Assembly: GCA_039794845.1 (NCBI GenBank) | Contig: JAUQVK010000060.1 | Coordinates: forward strand, 1 to 21,601 | Reading direction: 5' to 3' | DNA: 21,601 nucleotides | Origin: Thermostichus sp. DRC_bins_24 | Lineage (GTDB): Bacteria > Cyanobacteriota > Cyanobacteriia > Thermostichales > Thermostichaceae | Shown: positions 5,508 through 12,178 of the stretch, piece after piece | Layout of the letters: each line of letters opens with the position of its first letter | Numbering within the stretch: the first letter of the stretch is position 1 | The notes under the pieces: generated by a model | Told to the model about the DNA's origin: nothing | Seen by the model: the letters and a program-made list of their open reading frames with translations, nothing else | Database searches by the model: none | Made by a program: the position numbers and the translations under genes

Positions 5508-7313
5508 TCACTGGCGAGGCAAAAACCTCGGCAAATCCACGGCTCGCTTGGTTACCCGTGCTGGCAGGGGCCGGGGCAGAGGCTGAATCGCAGGCTTTGG
5601 GGTCTGGGCAGGTGCTGGGGCTTTTTTATCGGGTGACTCGGGAAGAAGACTATCCTGCCCTTTGCGCTCCAGGGCCGCTTTGAGGCTCAGCACATGCATC
5701 TGCTGCTGCTCGTACTTCTCTTTTAGGGAGCGATTTTCTTCGTAGAGGGCAGCTCGTTCCGCTTGCAACGCCTTTATCTGCTCCACCTGTTTTCCCAGTT
5801 GTGCTTTGAGGGCTTCCATTTGTTCCTGCAGGTGGGCGATGGTGGTCTGGGCCGAGCGCAATTCTGGCTGCCAGTCCGGTTGGGCGGAAAGTTGGGCCAA
5901 AGCACTGTGCAACTGCTGCTCCAGTTCAGTCAAGTGCTGCTGGGTCTGGTTGTACTGCTCTTGCAGATGGCGGTTCTCCTGCTGCCAATGGGCAGCTTCC
6001 GCTTGAGCTTGGGATAGGGCTGACTGCAGCTTTTCAGCCTGAGCTTGCCATTGCTGCTGAAGCCGTTGCTGTTCTCGGGATCCCTGGCGCAGGTGTTCCT
6101 GCTCGGCCTGCAAAGCCGCCAGCTGGGCCTGGGCTTCAGCCAGAGCAGCTTCTAACTCTTGCCGCTGCTCTTGCCAGCGTTGCTCAGCTTCTGCCTCTGT
6201 TTCGGCGTAGCCCGCCAGCCGTGCCTCCAGGTGTTCCCGTTGTTCTTGCCATGCGGCCTGTTGGTCGCTGTGTAAAGCCCGTAAGCTGCTTAGCTCCGTC
6301 TGAGTTTCCGCAATCTGGGTACGGGCCAAACACAGCTCCGCCTTGAAGCGTTGCAACATTTCCACCCGTTTTTCCGCCAGATCCTGAGCTTCTAGGAGAG
6401 AAGCCTGCAGCTCCTGTTGGCGATGTTCCCATTGACGGCGCTCCTGAGCTTGGGCCAGTCGCATCTGCTCGAGCTGCCCCTGTAGGGCCTCAATATCCTG
6501 CCGCTGCCGGTCGTTGAGTCGTTGTCGGGCAGCAATCTGGGCATCTCGCTCGGCAAGCTGCACTGCTTGGTCGGCCAAAGACTGCTGCAACTGCTTCAGG
6601 GTGTGCTCCCGTTCCTGCAAAAGCTGTTGCTGTTCGGCCAACTTCTGCTGTAAGGCTTGGCGCTCGGCCTCGAGAGTGGCCTCTGCCGGGGACTGAGCCT
6701 TCAACTGCAGCAGTTCCAACTGCTGTTGCTGCTTGCGCGACTGCAATTCCGTCTGGGCCAATTGGCTGCGCAGGGCCTGAACTTGAGCCTGCAAGTGCTC
6801 CTGAAGGGTCTGCCGTTCTTGCAGCTCGGCTTCGGCCTTGAGCAGGCGGGCCTCCAACTGCTGTCGTTGCCTCAGGGCCAAATAACGCTCTGCCTCATCT
6901 GCAGAACCCTGGTGCTCCACATCGGGAGCCCGTTCCAAGGCTGACCAACCTGCTGGAACCTCTGGAAGGGTGGGATCCGAATCATCTGAGGAGGGGACAT
7001 GCATAGGATGAAGGGAAGATAAAGATGAGGGAGTGCTCAATAAAGTTCCTTGCAGTATAGAGAGATTTTTCGGTGGGCTCAAGCCAGGGGAAGGATCTTG
7101 TAAAGTCTCTTTCTGGTGGTGCTCCGCACCCCGCTCAGCGGGATAGTGCTGTTTTGGCCCCACGTCCACTTCTACAGCGTCCAAATCCGGGAGTGGAGCC
7201 TCATTGGAAGCCGCAGCTTTGCTTTTGCGTCGTGGAGCACGAGTGCGACGGGAAGAGGCTTCCCCACGCTTCGACGTGAACTCCGACCCGTTGTTGCCCT
7301 GAGAACCTGCCAC
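5508..7313 (-). CDS. Long Gln/Glu/Ala-rich coiled-coil protein of unknown function
   Basis: 601 aa: a disordered Pro/Ser-rich N-terminus, about 400 aa of heptad-like Q/E/L/A sequence and a Pro-rich C-tail. It ends 12 bp upstream of priA on the same strand. Confidence 0.8.
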   Translation of the reverse strand: MAGSQGNNGSEFTSKRGEASSRRTRAPRRKSKAAASNEAPLPDLDAVEVDVGPKQHYPAERGAEHHQKETLQDPSPGLSPPKNLSILQGTLLSTPSSLSSLHPMHVPSSDDSDPTLPEVPAGWSALERAPDVEHQGSADEAERYLALRQRQQLEARLLKAEAELQERQTLQEHLQAQVQALRSQLAQTELQSRKQQQQLELLQLKAQSPAEATLEAERQALQQKLAEQQQLLQEREHTLKQLQQSLADQAVQLAERDAQIAARQRLNDRQRQDIEALQGQLEQMRLAQAQERRQWEHRQQELQASLLEAQDLAEKRVEMLQRFKAELCLARTQIAETQTELSSLRALHSDQQAAWQEQREHLEARLAGYAETEAEAEQRWQEQRQELEAALAEAQAQLAALQAEQEHLRQGSREQQRLQQQWQAQAEKLQSALSQAQAEAAHWQQENRHLQEQYNQTQQHLTELEQQLHSALAQLSAQPDWQPELRSAQTTIAHLQEQMEALKAQLGKQVEQIKALQAERAALYEENRSLKEKYEQQQMHVLSLKAALERKGQDSLLPESPDKKAPAPAQTPKPAIQPLPRPLPARVTKRAVDLPRFLPRQ

Positions 7314-7722: not shown

Positions 7723-9267
7723 ATGGCGATGCAGGATGTGGCCGGCGGTCAGCTTCGCTCTCTTCAACAGCTGACGAGCCCACCGGGATCTTGGTTGTGT
7801 CGAACCTGTTCTGCTCCCTACGGTCTCCTTTTGGGTTTGCTCTGGGCCGCTCCTGCCTTTGCTCAACCGGAACCGCCGGATCCTGCTGCCTTCGCCCTGC
7901 CCGATAGTCGCGAGATCCTCACCCCCGCTCTACCCCCCACCTTATCCGTACCTCCTGACGCTGCCCCCGCCCCTGCGCCGGTGTTGGAGGGATCCCTGAC
8001 GGCAGAAGAACTGGTGGTGCCCCAATCTCCCCTGGAGGTACGCATCGAGCGCAGGGAGGGTTTATCTCTACAGGAGGCCCTGGATCTCGCCGTTGCCCGA
8101 AACCCTGCTGTTCAACAGGCAGAACTGGCGGTACAACGAGCCGAAGCAGGCATTGCCCTGGCGCAGGCCGCCTATGCCCCCACCCTCTCCAGCACTGCCA
8201 ACTACCAATACAGCGATGCGCCCTCCCCAGGCGGTGGGCCCAGCCGCGAATCCCACTCCCTCTCGGCCAGCGTGGTGCGGGTGGAGTATACCGCCTTTGA
8301 CAGTGGCCTGCGGGAGCAGAACCTGAACGTAGCCCAAGAAGCTCTGCGCATCGCCCAGTTGCAACTGCAGCAAACCCTGCAAACCGTGAAGCAAGCTGTG
8401 GCCAACGCCTACTACGATCTGCAAAGCTCAGATGCCAGCGTTGCCATTAACCAAGCTGCCATCGAAAGCTCTGAAGCCACCCTTCGGGATGCCCAGGCCC
8501 GAGAGCGAGCCGGGCTGGGTACCCGTTTCGAGATTCTGCAGGCGGAAACGGAGTTGGCCAACAATCGACAAGCCCTGTTGGCGGCCCAAAACACCCAGCA
8601 ACTGAATCGTCGTCGCTTAGCCGAACTGCTCAACTTCCCCAGCCCCACCGATGTGCTGGCCAGTGATCCCATTCAACCGACAGGGGAATGGGATCTCAGC
8701 TTGGAAGAGACCATCATCGCTGCTTTTGCCCAACGGCAGGAACTGGAGATTCAGCGGCAACAACTGGAGCAAGCCCAGAGCCGTGTTCGCCTGGCGGAAG
8801 CCAGCAACGGCCCACGCATCGGCCTATTCGCCACCCTCGACATCGCCAACGATTTCAAGGCCAGCCGCGACAGTTTCGATGTGGGCTATTCGGCGGGGGC
8901 CAATTTCAGCTTCACCTGGTTTGACGGGGGAGAGGCAGAAGCCCAAGCCCGCCAAGCTCAGATCGATGGACAAGTGGCCGTGAGCAATTTCGTCGAAGCC
9001 CGCAATGAGATTCAACGGGGGGTCGAAGAAGCTTTCCTCACCCTCAGCTCCAGCCGCGAGCAGATCGATTCGGCCAAGGTGGCCATTGCCTCGGCAGAAG
9101 AAAGCCTGCGCCTAGCTCGGTTGCGGGTGCAAGCGGGGGTGGGCACCCAAACGGAGGTGATCAACGCCGAGACCGCCCTCACCACCGCCCGTGGCAACCT
9201 TTCCAATGCCGTCATCGCCTACAACCGTGCCCTTATTCAGCTGCAACGGGCCATCGGCACCCTTTAA
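7723..9267 (+). CDS. TolC family outer membrane efflux protein (start uncertain; ORF open from 7570)
   Basis: Signal-like segment LLLGLLWAAPAFA, LSLQEALDLAVARNP, and two OEP repeats (ANAYYDLQ...GLGTRFEILQAE; AEESLRLARLRVQAGVGTQTEVINAE). Confidence 0.9.
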   Translation: MAMQDVAGGQLRSLQQLTSPPGSWLCRTCSAPYGLLLGLLWAAPAFAQPEPPDPAAFALPDSREILTPALPPTLSVPPDAAPAPAPVLEGSLTAEELVVPQSPLEVRIERREGLSLQEALDLAVARNPAVQQAELAVQRAEAGIALAQAAYAPTLSSTANYQYSDAPSPGGGPSRESHSLSASVVRVEYTAFDSGLREQNLNVAQEALRIAQLQLQQTLQTVKQAVANAYYDLQSSDASVAINQAAIESSEATLRDAQARERAGLGTRFEILQAETELANNRQALLAAQNTQQLNRRRLAELLNFPSPTDVLASDPIQPTGEWDLSLEETIIAAFAQRQELEIQRQQLEQAQSRVRLAEASNGPRIGLFATLDIANDFKASRDSFDVGYSAGANFSFTWFDGGEAEAQARQAQIDGQVAVSNFVEARNEIQRGVEEAFLTLSSSREQIDSAKVAIASAEESLRLARLRVQAGVGTQTEVINAETALTTARGNLSNAVIAYNRALIQLQRAIGTL

Positions 9268-9403
9268 CTCCCATCCCTTTTCCTTTTTCCTTTTGGGAGC
9301 CTCTTTTATTCGTCCTCCACTGTACCTGCAGAGTCAGCGTCGGCAGGGCGTCACTCCAGTTCAAGTCAAGACAAAAGCCCGTTTTCACTTCTACAACACA
9401 GAA

Positions 9404-9568
9404 CGAGCTGGCAGAGTCATCCCCCACAGGTTCTGCAGCACCTCCGATTGGCGGGGGCCGATCTGGATCTGGATGCCGATCAACTCCCTGCCGGTGCTGG
9501 CTTTGGTGAAGCGGTACGGTGATGGAGCAGAGCTCGACACCGGTTCACTGCCCAGTTGCTGGGGATAA
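9404..9568 (+). pseudogene. Probable degraded fragment of an (alpha/alpha)6 glycoside hydrolase (GH63/MGH1-like)
   Basis: The frame reads STSDWRGPIWIWMPINSLPVLALVKRYG, resembling the family motif WRGP[IV]WxPxN. There is no credible start, the frame is short, and ATCTGG is duplicated. Boundaries are approximate. Confidence 0.4.
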
Positions 9569-9636
9569 AACTGAGACAACCGACGGTCTACCGAAGAACT
9601 TAACCTCCCCAGGTGCAGTTCAGTGCCTTTTTCGGG

Positions 9637-9642
9637 TATAGT
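9637..9642 (+). promoter_or_regulatory. Candidate -10 element (TATAGT) for the leader/DAHP synthase transcript
   Basis: 5/6 match to TATAAT about 60 bp upstream of the leader ATG; no clear -35. An alternative is TAGCAT at 9681-9686. Confidence 0.3.
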
Positions 9643-9702
9643 CATCTCATGTAGGTTCTGAACGAACTTGCTTGGTTTCCTAGCATTACCTTGTTCTTCG
9701 CT

Positions 9703-9777
9703 ATGTCTTTGCGCGCCGCCTTTTTTGGCTACTTTACCTTCCCCTGGCATCGACCAGGGCAGATGGGTGACGCGTAA
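9703..9777 (+). CDS. Aromatic amino acid-rich attenuator leader peptide (24 aa, MSLRAAFFGYFTFPWHRPGQMGDA)
   Basis: Manual translation from ATG 9703 to TAA 9775-9777. Codons 7-15 are TTT TTT GGC TAC TTT ACC TTC CCC TGG (4 Phe, 1 Tyr, 1 Trp), directly upstream of a terminator and the DAHP synthase. No obvious Shine-Dalgarno. Confidence 0.8.
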   Translation: MSLRAAFFGYFTFPWHRPGQMGDA

Positions 9778-9817
9778 ACGATAACCAAAGTTTACTTAAG
9801 TCAGTCCTGAAGCCCTG
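9742..9817 (+). promoter_or_regulatory. Alternative leader RNA structures: 1:2 hairpin and 2:3 antiterminator
   Basis: CCCTGG 9742-9747 pairs with CCAGGG 9754-9759. Alternatively CAGGGC 9755-9760 pairs with GCCCTG 9812-9817 (the terminator 5' arm), with nested TGAC 9768-9771/GTCA 9800-9803 and GTAAAC 9774-9779/GTTTAC 9790-9795. Confidence 0.7.
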
Positions 9818-9839
9818 AGCCCAGTGCCAGGGCTTTTTT
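9810..9839 (+). terminator. Intrinsic terminator (attenuator) upstream of the DAHP synthase
   Basis: AAGCCCTG 9810-9817 pairs with CAGGGCTT 9828-9835, with 2 extra GC pairs inside and a T6 run at 9834-9839. It lies between the leader ORF and the structural gene on the same strand. Confidence 0.8.
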
Positions 9840-9893
9840 AATGGCCTGATGCTGCCCAGTCAACCCTACTTGCTCTCCATGAAGGACCTTTCC

Positions 9894-10964
9894 ATGCCCC
9901 CCCAAACCGACAACTGCAACATCCAGGAGGTGACTCCCCTGATCGCCCCTAGCTCGGTCAAAGCCGAATTGCCCCTGACGGAAACCGCCGCCAAAGGGGT
10001 GCTCTCAACTCGGCAGGCCATCCGCAACATCATCCACGGACGGGATCCCCATCGTCTGGTGGTGATCGTCGGCCCTTGTTCCATTCACGACCCGGAAGCG
10101 GCCCTAGAGTATGCCCACCGTCTGAAGCGGGTGGCGGATCAAACCCAGGAGCACCTGGTGATCGTCATGCGCACCTACTTCGAGAAGCCCCGTACCACCG
10201 TGGGGTGGAAGGGCTTGATCAACGATCCCCACCTGGATGGCTCCTGTGACATCGCAACGGGTTTGAAGCTAGCCCGTTCGATCCTGTTGCGGGTTAACGA
10301 GATCGGGCTAGCTTGTGCTACCGAAATGCTGGATCCGGTTACCCCTCAATACACGGCAGACTTGGTCAGTTGGGCGGCAATCGGGGCCAGAACCATCGAA
10401 AGCCAAACCCACCGCGAGATGGCCAGTGGCCTTTCAATGCCCGTTGGCTTCAAAAACGGCACCGATGGTCGGCTGCAAATTGCCCTTAACGCCATTCTCT
10501 CCGCCAGCCATCCCCACAGTTTTCTGGGCATTGGGCAGGATGGCATGACCGCCCTGATCAAAACCACCGGCAACCCGGATCGACACATCGTCCTGCGGGG
10601 TGGGGGCGGCAAAACCAACTATGGCCCCGAAGATGTGGAGCGGGCGGCGCTGTTGATGGAGGAGCAAGGGATCCCCCGCTCGGTGATGGTGGACTGTTCC
10701 CACGACAACTCCAACAAAGACTACCGCAACCAGGGAGCCGTCTGTCGGGAGGTGCTGCGGCAATATCGCGCCGGTCAACGGGCCTTGATGGGGGTGATGC
10801 TGGAGAGCAACCTCAACCCTGGCAAACAAACCTGGTGTGAAGGGGCCCCCCTCAAACACGGTGTCTCCATTACCGATGGCTGCATTGGCTGGTCAGAGAC
10901 CGAAGATCTGTTGCAGGAGATGGCGGCCACCGTCGCTGGAGAAAGCTTGGCCCTGAGCCATTGA
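9894..10964 (+). CDS. aroG: 3-deoxy-7-phosphoheptulonate (DAHP) synthase, class I-alpha (AroF/G/H-like)
   Basis: Motifs VGPCSIHD, MRTYFEKPRTTVGWKGLINDP, IGARTIESQTHREMASGLS, GFKNGTDG, VDCSHDNS, GVMLES and SITDGCIGW. Start placed at ATG 9894 (AAGGA upstream; MPPQTDNCNIQEV resembles class I-alpha N-termini); the ORF is open from 9849. The specific isozyme cannot be assigned. Confidence 0.95.
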   Translation: MPPQTDNCNIQEVTPLIAPSSVKAELPLTETAAKGVLSTRQAIRNIIHGRDPHRLVVIVGPCSIHDPEAALEYAHRLKRVADQTQEHLVIVMRTYFEKPRTTVGWKGLINDPHLDGSCDIATGLKLARSILLRVNEIGLACATEMLDPVTPQYTADLVSWAAIGARTIESQTHREMASGLSMPVGFKNGTDGRLQIALNAILSASHPHSFLGIGQDGMTALIKTTGNPDRHIVLRGGGGKTNYGPEDVERAALLMEEQGIPRSVMVDCSHDNSNKDYRNQGAVCREVLRQYRAGQRALMGVMLESNLNPGKQTWCEGAPLKHGVSITDGCIGWSETEDLLQEMAATVAGESLALSH

Positions 10965-11138: not shown

Positions 11139-11585
11139 ATGGATTTGCAAATCCCAACCAGCGTAGACAGCAACGGTCACCAGCCCTACCCGGATCCCAG
11201 CCAGGTTTCTTCCCGAGCACCGGAGCAGTTGCGGGATCGCTTGATCGTGTCCGGCCTGCGCTACTACGGCTACACCGGCTTTAATGAAGCGGAACGAGCC
11301 TTGGGACAATGGTTTGAGGTGGACTTTGAGCTATGGGCGGATCTGCGTCCGGCGGCTTTTAGCGGCCAACTGTGCGACACCCTCGACTACCGCTCTGCCG
11401 TGGCCGGGATCGCGGAATTGGTGAAAAGCAATCAGTTTGTCTTGATCGAGAGTTTGGCGGAGGCGATTGCCGAGATGGTGCTGCGCGAGACGGGGGCCAG
11501 CAAAGCTAAGATCCGATTGACCAAGTGCAATCCGCCGATCCCAGATTTAACGGGGCGGGTGACGCTGGAACTCGTTCGTCCCTGA
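11139..11585 (+). CDS. folB: Dihydroneopterin aldolase
   Basis: DRLIVSGLRYYGYTG..EAERALGQWFEVD, DTLDY, LIESLAE, KCNPP. About 30 aa N-terminal extension; GAGGA precedes the ATG. Confidence 0.93.
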   Translation: MDLQIPTSVDSNGHQPYPDPSQVSSRAPEQLRDRLIVSGLRYYGYTGFNEAERALGQWFEVDFELWADLRPAAFSGQLCDTLDYRSAVAGIAELVKSNQFVLIESLAEAIAEMVLRETGASKAKIRLTKCNPPIPDLTGRVTLELVRP

Positions 11586-11593
11586 GGACCCCA

Positions 11594-12178
11594 TTGGTGG
11601 CTACCCTACAACTGGCTTCTCGCACCTCTGAGGCTTGGATCCAACAGGCCACCCAGTACATCGACCTGATTTTGCTAGACCACGCCAACTGCGAGAAAAA
11701 AGCGGCAGGCAATGCCCTCAGTCTGTTGTTTCGCTACCCCTGCAACGGGCAACTGGTGGAAACCCTCTCCCCTCTGGCCCGAGAGGAATTGCAGCATTTT
11801 GAGCGTGTGCATCGTCACCTGCAGCGGCTCGGGATCCCGGTGAAACCCCTATCTGCCGCCCCCTATGCCAGCCGCCTCAACCAACACCTGCGCCGCCAGG
11901 AACCGGATCATTTGCTGGATGCTCTGCTGTTGGCAGCGATCATCGAAGCGCGCAGCCATGAACGGTTGGGCTTACTGGGGATCCATGCCCCAGACCCGGA
12001 ACTGCGGCAGTTTTACCTGTGGTTGACGGCTGCCGAAGAGCGACACTTGCACCTGTACCTGAACTTGGCACTGGCCCATTTTCCTGCTGAGCCGGTGCAG
12101 CAACGTTTAGACGCACTCTTGCAGATAGAAGCCGAGATTTTGTCCACGCTTCACCCCGAGCCTCGTGTTCACAGCTAA
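11594..12178 (+). CDS. miaE: tRNA-(ms2io6A37) hydroxylase, ferritin-like di-iron enzyme
   Basis: LLDHANCEKKAA, LAREELQHF, IIEARSHERL, EERH and C-terminal RVHS. Start is probably TTG 11594 or GTG 11597, after GAGGA at the folB stop. Confidence 0.92.
   Translation: MVATLQLASRTSEAWIQQATQYIDLILLDHANCEKKAAGNALSLLFRYPCNGQLVETLSPLAREELQHFERVHRHLQRLGIPVKPLSAAPYASRLNQHLRRQEPDHLLDALLLAAIIEARSHERLGLLGIHAPDPELRQFYLWLTAAEERHLHLYLNLALAHFPAEPVQQRLDALLQIEAEILSTLHPEPRVHS

Follow-up and report, generated by a model that had tools for sequence, protein, structure and literature searches.

In the trpL-trpEDCBA and pheL-pheA systems of Escherichia coli, a short leader open reading frame (ORF) with regulatory codons is part of a leader RNA with four segments that pair in the alternative combinations 1:2, 2:3 and 3:4, and the 3:4 helix is an intrinsic terminator. 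Segment 2 becomes free when a ribosome stalls on the regulatory codons, and termination is favoured when the ribosome stands at the stop codon (reviewed in PMC11802643). We find a comparable arrangement in a stretch of 21,601 nucleotides (nt) from the cyanobacterium Thermostichus sp. DRC_bins_24 (contig JAUQVK010000060.1, hereafter the window), where a 24-codon leader ORF lies upstream of the gene for a class I 3-deoxy-D-arabinoheptulosonate 7-phosphate (DAHP) synthase. This enzyme is the entry point of the whole aromatic amino-acid pathway. We propose, with a probability of roughly 0.85, that a ribosome-mediated leader-peptide transcription attenuator sets the expression of the only detected DAHP synthase of the genome by the supply of charged tRNA-Phe, tRNA-Tyr and tRNA-Trp. 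With Phe, Tyr and Trp codons mixed in one leader, a genome that has just one isoenzyme would be able to monitor all three end products through charged tRNA.

A DAHP synthase attenuator is known from Corynebacterium glutamicum, in which the aroR leader peptide with its Phe-Tyr-Phe sequence attenuates the DAHP synthase (aroF) operon; reviews report that it responds to Phe and not to Tyr, and they describe no Trp codon (PMC4046766, PMC11802643). That system belongs to a different phylum (Actinobacteria), and we liken it to the present locus by function only. The primary paper on aroR-aroF is said to be that of Neshat et al. 2014. In our literature search, which had most subscription journals outside its reach, aroR-aroF was the only DAHP synthase attenuator described, and no description of the present element was found. 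A 2016 survey speaks of 'no reliable data' on ribosome-mediated attenuation in cyanobacteria (PMC4833913).

The predicted mechanism of the Thermostichus element is of the trpL/pheL type. In comparison with the E. coli leaders, however, it shows no sequence relation and matches no Rfam leader family; the gene under control encodes the DAHP synthase of the common pathway; codons for Phe, Tyr and Trp are interspersed in the leader, where the E. coli leaders have a run of one; the Trp codon itself lies in segment 1; and the stop codon lies in the antiterminator loop, 15 nt past segment 2, and not between segments 1 and 2. Searching Rfam 15, we obtained no match at gathering scores in the whole window, and a search of 9600-9900 at E values up to 10 gave only three chance-level matches, to unrelated small RNAs.

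Results

A leader ORF and mutually exclusive helices upstream of the DAHP synthase gene

The features of the locus are the following.

9703..9777, + strand: leader ORF, MSLRAAFFGYFTFPWHRPGQMGDA followed by TAA, 24 codons, from the ORF list (ATG at 9703, stop codon at 9775-9777)
9721..9747, + strand: aromatic codon cluster (Phe7, Phe8, Tyr10, Phe11, Phe13, Trp15); the computed sensing window is codons 8-15
9742..9747, + strand: segment 1, CCCUGG, codons Pro14-Trp15, from the inverted-repeat search (CCC in 34/35 and UGG in 35/35 relatives)
9754..9760, + strand: segment 2, CCAGGGC, partner of either segment 1 or segment 3, from the repeats (2:3 core paired in 210/210 alignment cells)
9765..9807, + strand: inner antiterminator, GGGUGAC 9765-9771 with GUCA.UCC 9800-9807 and GUAAAC 9774-9779 with GUUUAC 9790-9795, from the minimum free energy (MFE) fold
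9809..9836, + strand: terminator hairpin of 11 pairs with one bulged A; segment 3 is GCCCUG 9812-9817 and segment 4 is CAGGGC 9828-9833
9834..9839, + strand: U6 tract of the intrinsic terminator, from sequence inspection and a terminator scan
9894..10964, + strand: class I DAHP synthase, identified by PF00793 (the listed ORF starts at 9849)
9638..9643, + strand: putative -10 element TATAGT within the conserved TTTTCGGGTATAnT, found by eye

Aromatic codons make up 6/24 of the leader, and five of these fall within the eight codons from Phe8 to Trp15. Phe, Tyr and Trp are all represented in the leaders that we examined, and a short ORF runs in the same frame through CCC-UGG in 35/35 non-redundant relatives. 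Every part of the layout of a trpL/pheL-type attenuator is found at this locus, in the expected order: a leader ORF, clustered aromatic codons, an intrinsic terminator, an antiterminator (2:3) and an anti-antiterminator (1:2).

A first-pass annotation made from the letters of this stretch had proposed a complete set of alternative helices, and all of its repeats lie where it placed them. Our independent repeat search returns CCCTGG (9742-9747) with CCAGGG (9754-9759), CAGGGC (9755-9760) with GCCCTG (9812-9817), GTAAAC (9774-9779) with GTTTAC (9790-9795), and CCCTGGCA (9742-9749) as the complement of TGCCAGGG (9825-9832). The same search gives the terminator arms as AAGCCCTG (9810-9817) and CAGGGCTT (9828-9835). 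The leader stop codon sits within the GTAAAC of the inner antiterminator. The long nested hairpin that the annotation described, including GGGUGAC/GUCA.UCC, is indeed the fold of 9736-9840 (-41.6 kcal/mol, z -4.31, 0/200 shuffles as good). A longer piece, 9690-9845, folds into 1:2 plus the terminator (-53 kcal/mol, z -2.95, 1/200 shuffles as good).

The downstream gene was identified by a Pfam profile search (PF00793, E 5.6e-88). Its true start is likely ATG 9894 and not the listed ORF start at 9849, as suggested by AAGGA at 9882-9886 and by the DAHP synthases of relatives, which align from residue 1 of the 9894 start. This leaves 54 nt from the U tract to the start of the gene. In this genome (99.9% complete) the enzyme is the sole PF00793 match, and the class II enzyme (PF01474) has no match.

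The attenuation model would work as follows. Transcription would start upstream of 9703, and a ribosome would translate the 24-codon leader while RNA polymerase proceeds. When aromatic tRNAs are plentiful, the ribosome would pass Trp15 and reach the stop codon at 9775, covering segment 2 and the inner antiterminator stems; with segment 2 covered, 3:4 would form and transcription would end at U6 (9834-9839). If the leader is not translated, 1:2 would pair and the terminator would again form. When an aromatic tRNA is scarce, the A site would stall at about Phe8-Trp15, so that segment 1 is covered and segment 2 is free. The free segment 2 would then pair with segment 3 as it emerges, reinforced by GGGUGAC/GUCA.UCC and GUAAAC/GUUUAC, and segment 4 would be left partnerless, letting the polymerase read through into the DAHP synthase gene. 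The present data show the layout, the folding of the RNA, its conservation and selection on the segments at RNA level; we infer four parts of this model, namely the promoter, leader translation, ribosome-polymerase coupling and the response to starvation. The element makes transcription-translation coupling in a cyanobacterium testable.

Ribosome positions in the aromatic cluster are predicted to free the antiterminator

Performing a footprint scan, we masked the nascent RNA 9650-9822, a length at which segment 4 has yet to be transcribed, codon by codon according to the ribosomal A site, with a shorter (+9) and a longer (+12) footprint edge. The nascent RNA without a ribosome forms 1:2 (P = 0.99) and no 2:3 (P = 0.00). 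With the A site at codons 1-7, 1:2 persists (P 0.64-0.96), and Phe8, Gly9 and Tyr10 are transitional. With the A site at Phe11 to Pro14, and at Trp15 with the +9 edge, 2:3 takes over (P 0.95-0.97). From His16 to the stop codon, P(2:3) falls to 0. Therefore, the computed sensing window coincides with the aromatic cluster. Footprint-constrained folding at each codon had been put forward in the first-pass annotation as a check on its switch, and the stall pattern that it predicted is the one obtained here.

The same scan was run on the 35 non-redundant relatives. In 33 of them the last codon of the sensing block is the Trp codon or one of the three before it. Aromatic codons account for 194 of 467 codons inside the sensing windows, compared to 42 of 406 outside. 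When the ribosome is placed at the stop codon, all 35 have the terminator as their MFE structure. Together with the comparative data on all three helices given below, the footprint scan supports the earlier proposal that a stall in the aromatic cluster leads to the antiterminator and a ribosome at the stop codon to the terminator.

The annotation had also suggested a second route to antitermination, in which segment 1 (9742-9749) captures segment 4 (9825-9832). The 8-nt complement exists in the repeat search, it is part of the MFE structure of 9736-9840, nested with 2:3, and together with 2:3 it prevails (P 0.68-0.98) in equilibrium folds of the full-length RNA, though only if a ribosome masks codons 1-10 and segment 1 is free. 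However, the pairings 1:2, 2:3 and 3:4 by themselves make segment 1 complementary to segment 4, so the 6-nt core adds no information, and the two extra pairs hold in only 11/35 and 19/35 sequences. Segment 1 also lies inside the ribosome in the very state that requires read-through, and on the nascent RNA segment 4 is not yet made when the choice between 1:2 and 2:3 falls. We consider a functional 1:4 route improbable, and a separate mechanism of this kind is not supported; in all likelihood the 1:4 pairing merely follows from the other three pairings.

Conservation of the leader acts on the RNA

In the alignment of the 35 relatives, 1:2 is paired in 93% of cells, 3:4 in 92% and 1:4 in 85%, and the 2:3 core is paired in 210/210 cells. 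An RNAalifold consensus independently returns 1:2 and 3:4. The variation consists almost wholly of wobble-compatible transitions, and therefore covariation is weak at this depth. We enlarged the alignment with divergent members from Binatia and planctomycetes to 59 matches, or 52 distinct rows. In these rows 93.8% of the cells of 1:2 and 3:4 are paired (94.9% for the terminator), with 8 pairs changed on both sides. The antiterminator 2:3 with its GGG/CCC extension, which stands outside the model used for aligning, is paired in 92.3% of cells with 5 both-side pairs. Neither set was reached in 500 shuffles (0/500 as high in each case), counts that are indications and not probabilities since the rows are related. 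In the GGG/CCC extension about 80% of cells retain pairing, and changes occur on both sides.

The most telling single observation concerns one interlocked position that takes part in all the helices. Read in the order of segments 1-2-3-4, it is U-A-U-A in 31 rows, U-A-U-G in 7, U-G-U-G in 6 and U-G-C-G in 6; L256 is the one exception, and L259 reads A-U-U-A. The U-G-C-G state occurs both in a member of the family (L023) and in Binatia. A C in segment 3 is seen only in rows in which its two alternative partners both read G already. Such a path is what one would expect if no helix may be lost at any step, and the element offers a clean natural example of three mutually exclusive helices constraining each other's evolution.

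The codons of the leader behave in a different way from those of the adjacent gene. Among 118 invariant columns of the DAHP synthase other than Met and Trp (29 rows), the third codon base varies in every one, with a median of 4 codons per column. The leader has CCC for Pro14 in 34/35, GGG for Gly19 in 35/35 and UGG for Trp in 35/35. Amino-acid replacements are tolerated where pairing allows: Pro in segment 2 gives way to Ser or Leu (CCA, UCA, CCG, CUG) with pairing kept in all, and Pro to Thr in segment 1 either keeps the pairing or affects only the end pair. Divergent members replace the Pro of Pro-Trp by Thr, Ser, Gly or Ala and keep the helix (L021, L170, L156/L247, L244, L245). Variation is free at both loop codons that separate segment 1 from segment 2, and also in the N- and C-terminal parts of the peptide. 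These patterns argue that selection acts on the leader RNA and not on the peptide. They also suggest an explanation for the near-identity across phyla, namely that segment 1 holds the only Trp codon and the other segments are tied to it.

The same data bear on the possibility that the short ORF is a functional micro-protein, or that a stand-alone small RNA of about 190 nt is made, with read-through into the DAHP synthase gene being incidental. A peptide core, Y-F-[TS]-[FY]-P-W-x-x-[PS]-G, is conserved across phyla, and the unit comes with both a promoter-like element and a strong terminator, as this explanation would have it. But the synonymous sites of the conserved codons are frozen while replacements that keep the pairs are tolerated, and both peptide ends and the two loop codons are free to vary. 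The element is, moreover, directly upstream of a DAHP synthase gene in 34/35 cases and never elsewhere in the 5 genomes checked. We regard this explanation as very improbable.

Equally slight is the chance that the same helices are driven in another way, by a TnaC-like arrest in response to a free aromatic amino acid or by a protein or ligand on the conserved unpaired bases. In its favour is the Tyr-Phe stretch UAC-UUU-A (9730-9736) just before segment 1, which is nearly invariant across phyla (UUU in 34/35, never UUC; UAC in 28/35) without an assignable conserved partner and so gives room for an extra constraint. Against it, members with an intact helix can have another residue in place of the Pro of Pro-Trp, which makes an exact arrest motif unlikely; no Rfam riboswitch, T-box or other family matches; and arrest induced by an amino acid would have the wrong sign for a biosynthetic gene. 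Chance complementarity beside an ordinary terminator, with no regulatory role, is practically negligible: G+C-rich hexamers recur easily and a plain terminator elsewhere (L154, 28 bits) mimics part of the model, but the fold z-scores (-2.95 and -4.31) and, above all, the retention of all four segments and the ORF in 52 distinct sequences of several phyla argue against it.

One further pairing was tried as a reason for the invariance of UAC-UUU-A and rejected. A longer 1:2 helix, UUUACC (9733-9738) with GGGUGA (9765-9770), has extension pairs in about 45-90% of rows, and the helix is not above shuffles.

Equilibrium folding and a kinetic decision

Several observations weigh against ribosome-mediated attenuation as proposed here. 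The first-pass annotation had tied its switch to an antiterminator that is energetically competitive once segment 1 is masked. With everything upstream masked this holds, though narrowly: the antiterminator stands at -32.0 and the terminator at -31.1 kcal/mol in the window, a lead of only 0.9 kcal/mol, and among the 35 relatives the MFE structure is the antiterminator in 19 and the terminator in 16. At full-length equilibrium with the RNA behind the ribosome free it does not hold. There, masking the footprint only, stalls at Thr12 to Trp15 (and at Phe11 with the +12 edge) give P(3:4) of 0.78-0.97, because the free 5' RNA stabilises the terminator state. In 15/35 relatives, the nascent RNA without its 5' untranslated region prefers 2:3 even when free of ribosomes.

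The comparative evidence has its own weak side. Covariation is modest, with most columns invariant or changing only to wobble partners; the shuffle counts come from related rows; and the 52-row alignment was fitted to the 1:2 plus 3:4 model and so leans to those helices.

Expression signals, too, are weak. A consensus scan of 9200-10100 found no sigma-70-type promoter, and there is no clear Shine-Dalgarno sequence before the leader ATG at 9703. To our knowledge, ribosome-polymerase coupling is not established in cyanobacteria.

Since equilibrium folding gives the antiterminator a narrow lead at best, the choice must be made kinetically, as it is in the trp leader of E. coli. Under the attenuation model the partner of segment 3 that exists first must win, and in the 15 relatives whose nascent RNA prefers 2:3, the 1:2 helix must act as a kinetic trap. 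On the promoter side, the TATAGT motif is conserved upstream of the leader in the inspected loci of the genus, and in other genera TTGACn-N16-18-TAnnnT sites occur upstream of the leader (13/35 score at least 8 of 12). In four loci of the planctomycete type (L127, L140, L145, L077), a -10-like box ends 6-9 nt before the leader start codon, and the leader mRNA of these loci may be leaderless or nearly so.

Distribution of the element and its linkage to DAHP synthase

A protein search of 40 relatives found DAHP synthase in 39, or in 40/41 genomes when the window's own is counted, and the leader is visible upstream of the gene in all loci of the family. We ran two pattern scans over the genomes of 185,579 species. 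After filtering, 23 of 71 stretches from the first scan and 25 of 50 from the second were true leaders, the rest being chance matches in coding DNA. Outside cyanobacteria, these scans place the leader in Planctomycetota, Candidatus Binatia, Myxococcota and one acidobacterial metagenome-assembled genome (MAG), the last on a 3-kb contig with provisional binning. Removal of duplicates left the 35 non-redundant leaders used above. DAHP synthase is the downstream gene in 34 of them, and the contig of the 35th ends too soon. In the other phyla, the identity of these DAHP synthases over full length is 63-71%. The upstream neighbour gene, by comparison, is not conserved even within the genus. In all five genomes checked the element occurs once per genome.

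From the leader family we built a covariance model, R1, and used it for searches of genomes and loci. Matches were as follows.

DAHP synthase loci of the family: 23/23
Loci of other cyanobacterial families: 0/7
Sample of other genomes of the phylum Cyanobacteriota: 0 true matches in 150
One planctomycete family: 12/17
Sample across the phylum Planctomycetota: 2/150 others, one of them doubtful
One Binatia order: 13/52
Sample of the family Polyangiaceae: 0/40 others
Family of the acidobacterial MAG: 1/40 others, a weak match from an unpublished genome (G464)

The null results in other cyanobacteria concern this sequence family and not attenuators in general. A crude screen for aromatic-rich short frames at 16 other cyanobacterial DAHP synthase loci found none in 10 and matches in the other 6 (L029, L187, L202, L225, L229 and the L235/L236 set). 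Among these, L229 and L236 share a similar frame near the gene, the only such pair in the screen, and this looks like a candidate leader. R1 can serve to mark this regulator, which is missing from annotations, in the genomes of several phyla.

Four candidates were set aside. Three were matches of the model: L154 (28 bits) proved to be an ordinary terminator behind a gene, L157 (34 bits) has the terminator half only, and L216 (20.9 bits) lies on the opposite strand. The fourth, L119, passed the leader filter and was dropped by eye, as no hairpin with a U run follows it. In a Planctomycetota MAG (L139), about 650 nt separate segment 1 from the start of the DAHP synthase match, compared to about 120-210 nt in the other members, and there may be an insertion between attenuator and gene.

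Phylogeny of the DAHP synthase carrying the leader

We compared 117 DAHP synthases in a FastTree phylogeny. The 22 sequences of the family form a clade (support 95), which falls within a clade of 44 (support 96) together with the leader-bearing Planctomycetota, Binatia and Myxococcota. This larger clade also holds 11 Nitrospirota sequences without the leader, and the other cyanobacterial enzymes lie elsewhere. A quick IQ-TREE tree of 59 rows agrees. The approximately unbiased test rejects a single cyanobacterial clade (difference in log-likelihood 153.5, p 1.3e-65), the group having been named after the first tree. The trees are unrooted and leave the direction of transfer unset.

These trees would be explained most simply if the attenuator moved along with its gene and this hot-spring cyanobacterial family either acquired the pair or was alone in keeping it. 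On this account the element would mark a probable joint transfer of gene and regulator. A more specific version is tentative, and we give it slightly less than an even chance: the switch and the DAHP synthase gene would form a cassette that passed from phylum to phylum and reached the ancestor of the family. Its four segments are almost letter-identical across at least four or five phyla, which would follow from segment 1 being built on the single Trp codon UGG and each other segment being locked to it through two partners. Under this version a segment would be able to change only along a wobble path, from A-U through G.U to G-C. If it is true, attenuation works in this cyanobacterial lineage, which would imply tight coupling of ribosome and RNA polymerase, and the invariance of UAC-UUU-A would point to a further constraint on the ribosome reading the sensing codons.

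Two other sets of loci carry sequences of interest upstream of DAHP synthase. Three (L171 and L172, which belong to the sister group, and L183) have aromatic-rich leader ORFs and terminators in the same layout with different segment sequences, with leaders such as MSPSFFSYSFFMDAQGWFALGAVKGCAEV in a Spirochaetaceae MAG and MASRRFFWFGYWRAETAATGSSL in a Polyangiaceae MAG; these are likely sister families of the attenuator. The Nitrospirota loci with the closest leaderless DAHP synthases (L158-L160, L162) have other conserved upstream motifs, such as TTGTCAAAC and GTGGATATTTCC, which may represent a different, protein-based control that replaced the attenuator.

Neighbouring genes

Upstream, a 119-amino-acid ORF on the opposite strand (9391-9750, - strand) overlaps the leader region. 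It matches no Pfam family, and the sequence upstream of the leader is not conserved among the relatives of the genus; this ORF is probably not a gene. Further upstream, 5508-7313 (- strand) encodes a protein of 601 amino acids that is rich in Gln, Glu and Ala and apparently coiled-coil, with weak Pfam matches below the curated cut-offs.

Downstream, a MiaE-family tRNA hydroxylase gene (PF06175, E 9e-63; 11525-12178, + strand) follows about 560 nt after the DAHP synthase gene, with FolB nearby at 11139-11585. The MiaE-family gene comes after DAHP synthase in 9/11 relatives of the genus, the two misses being loci cut short, and does not do so in other genera of the family. MiaE modifies A37 in tRNAs that read UNN codons, those for Phe, Tyr and Trp among them, and a functional tie between this gene and the attenuator is conceivable.

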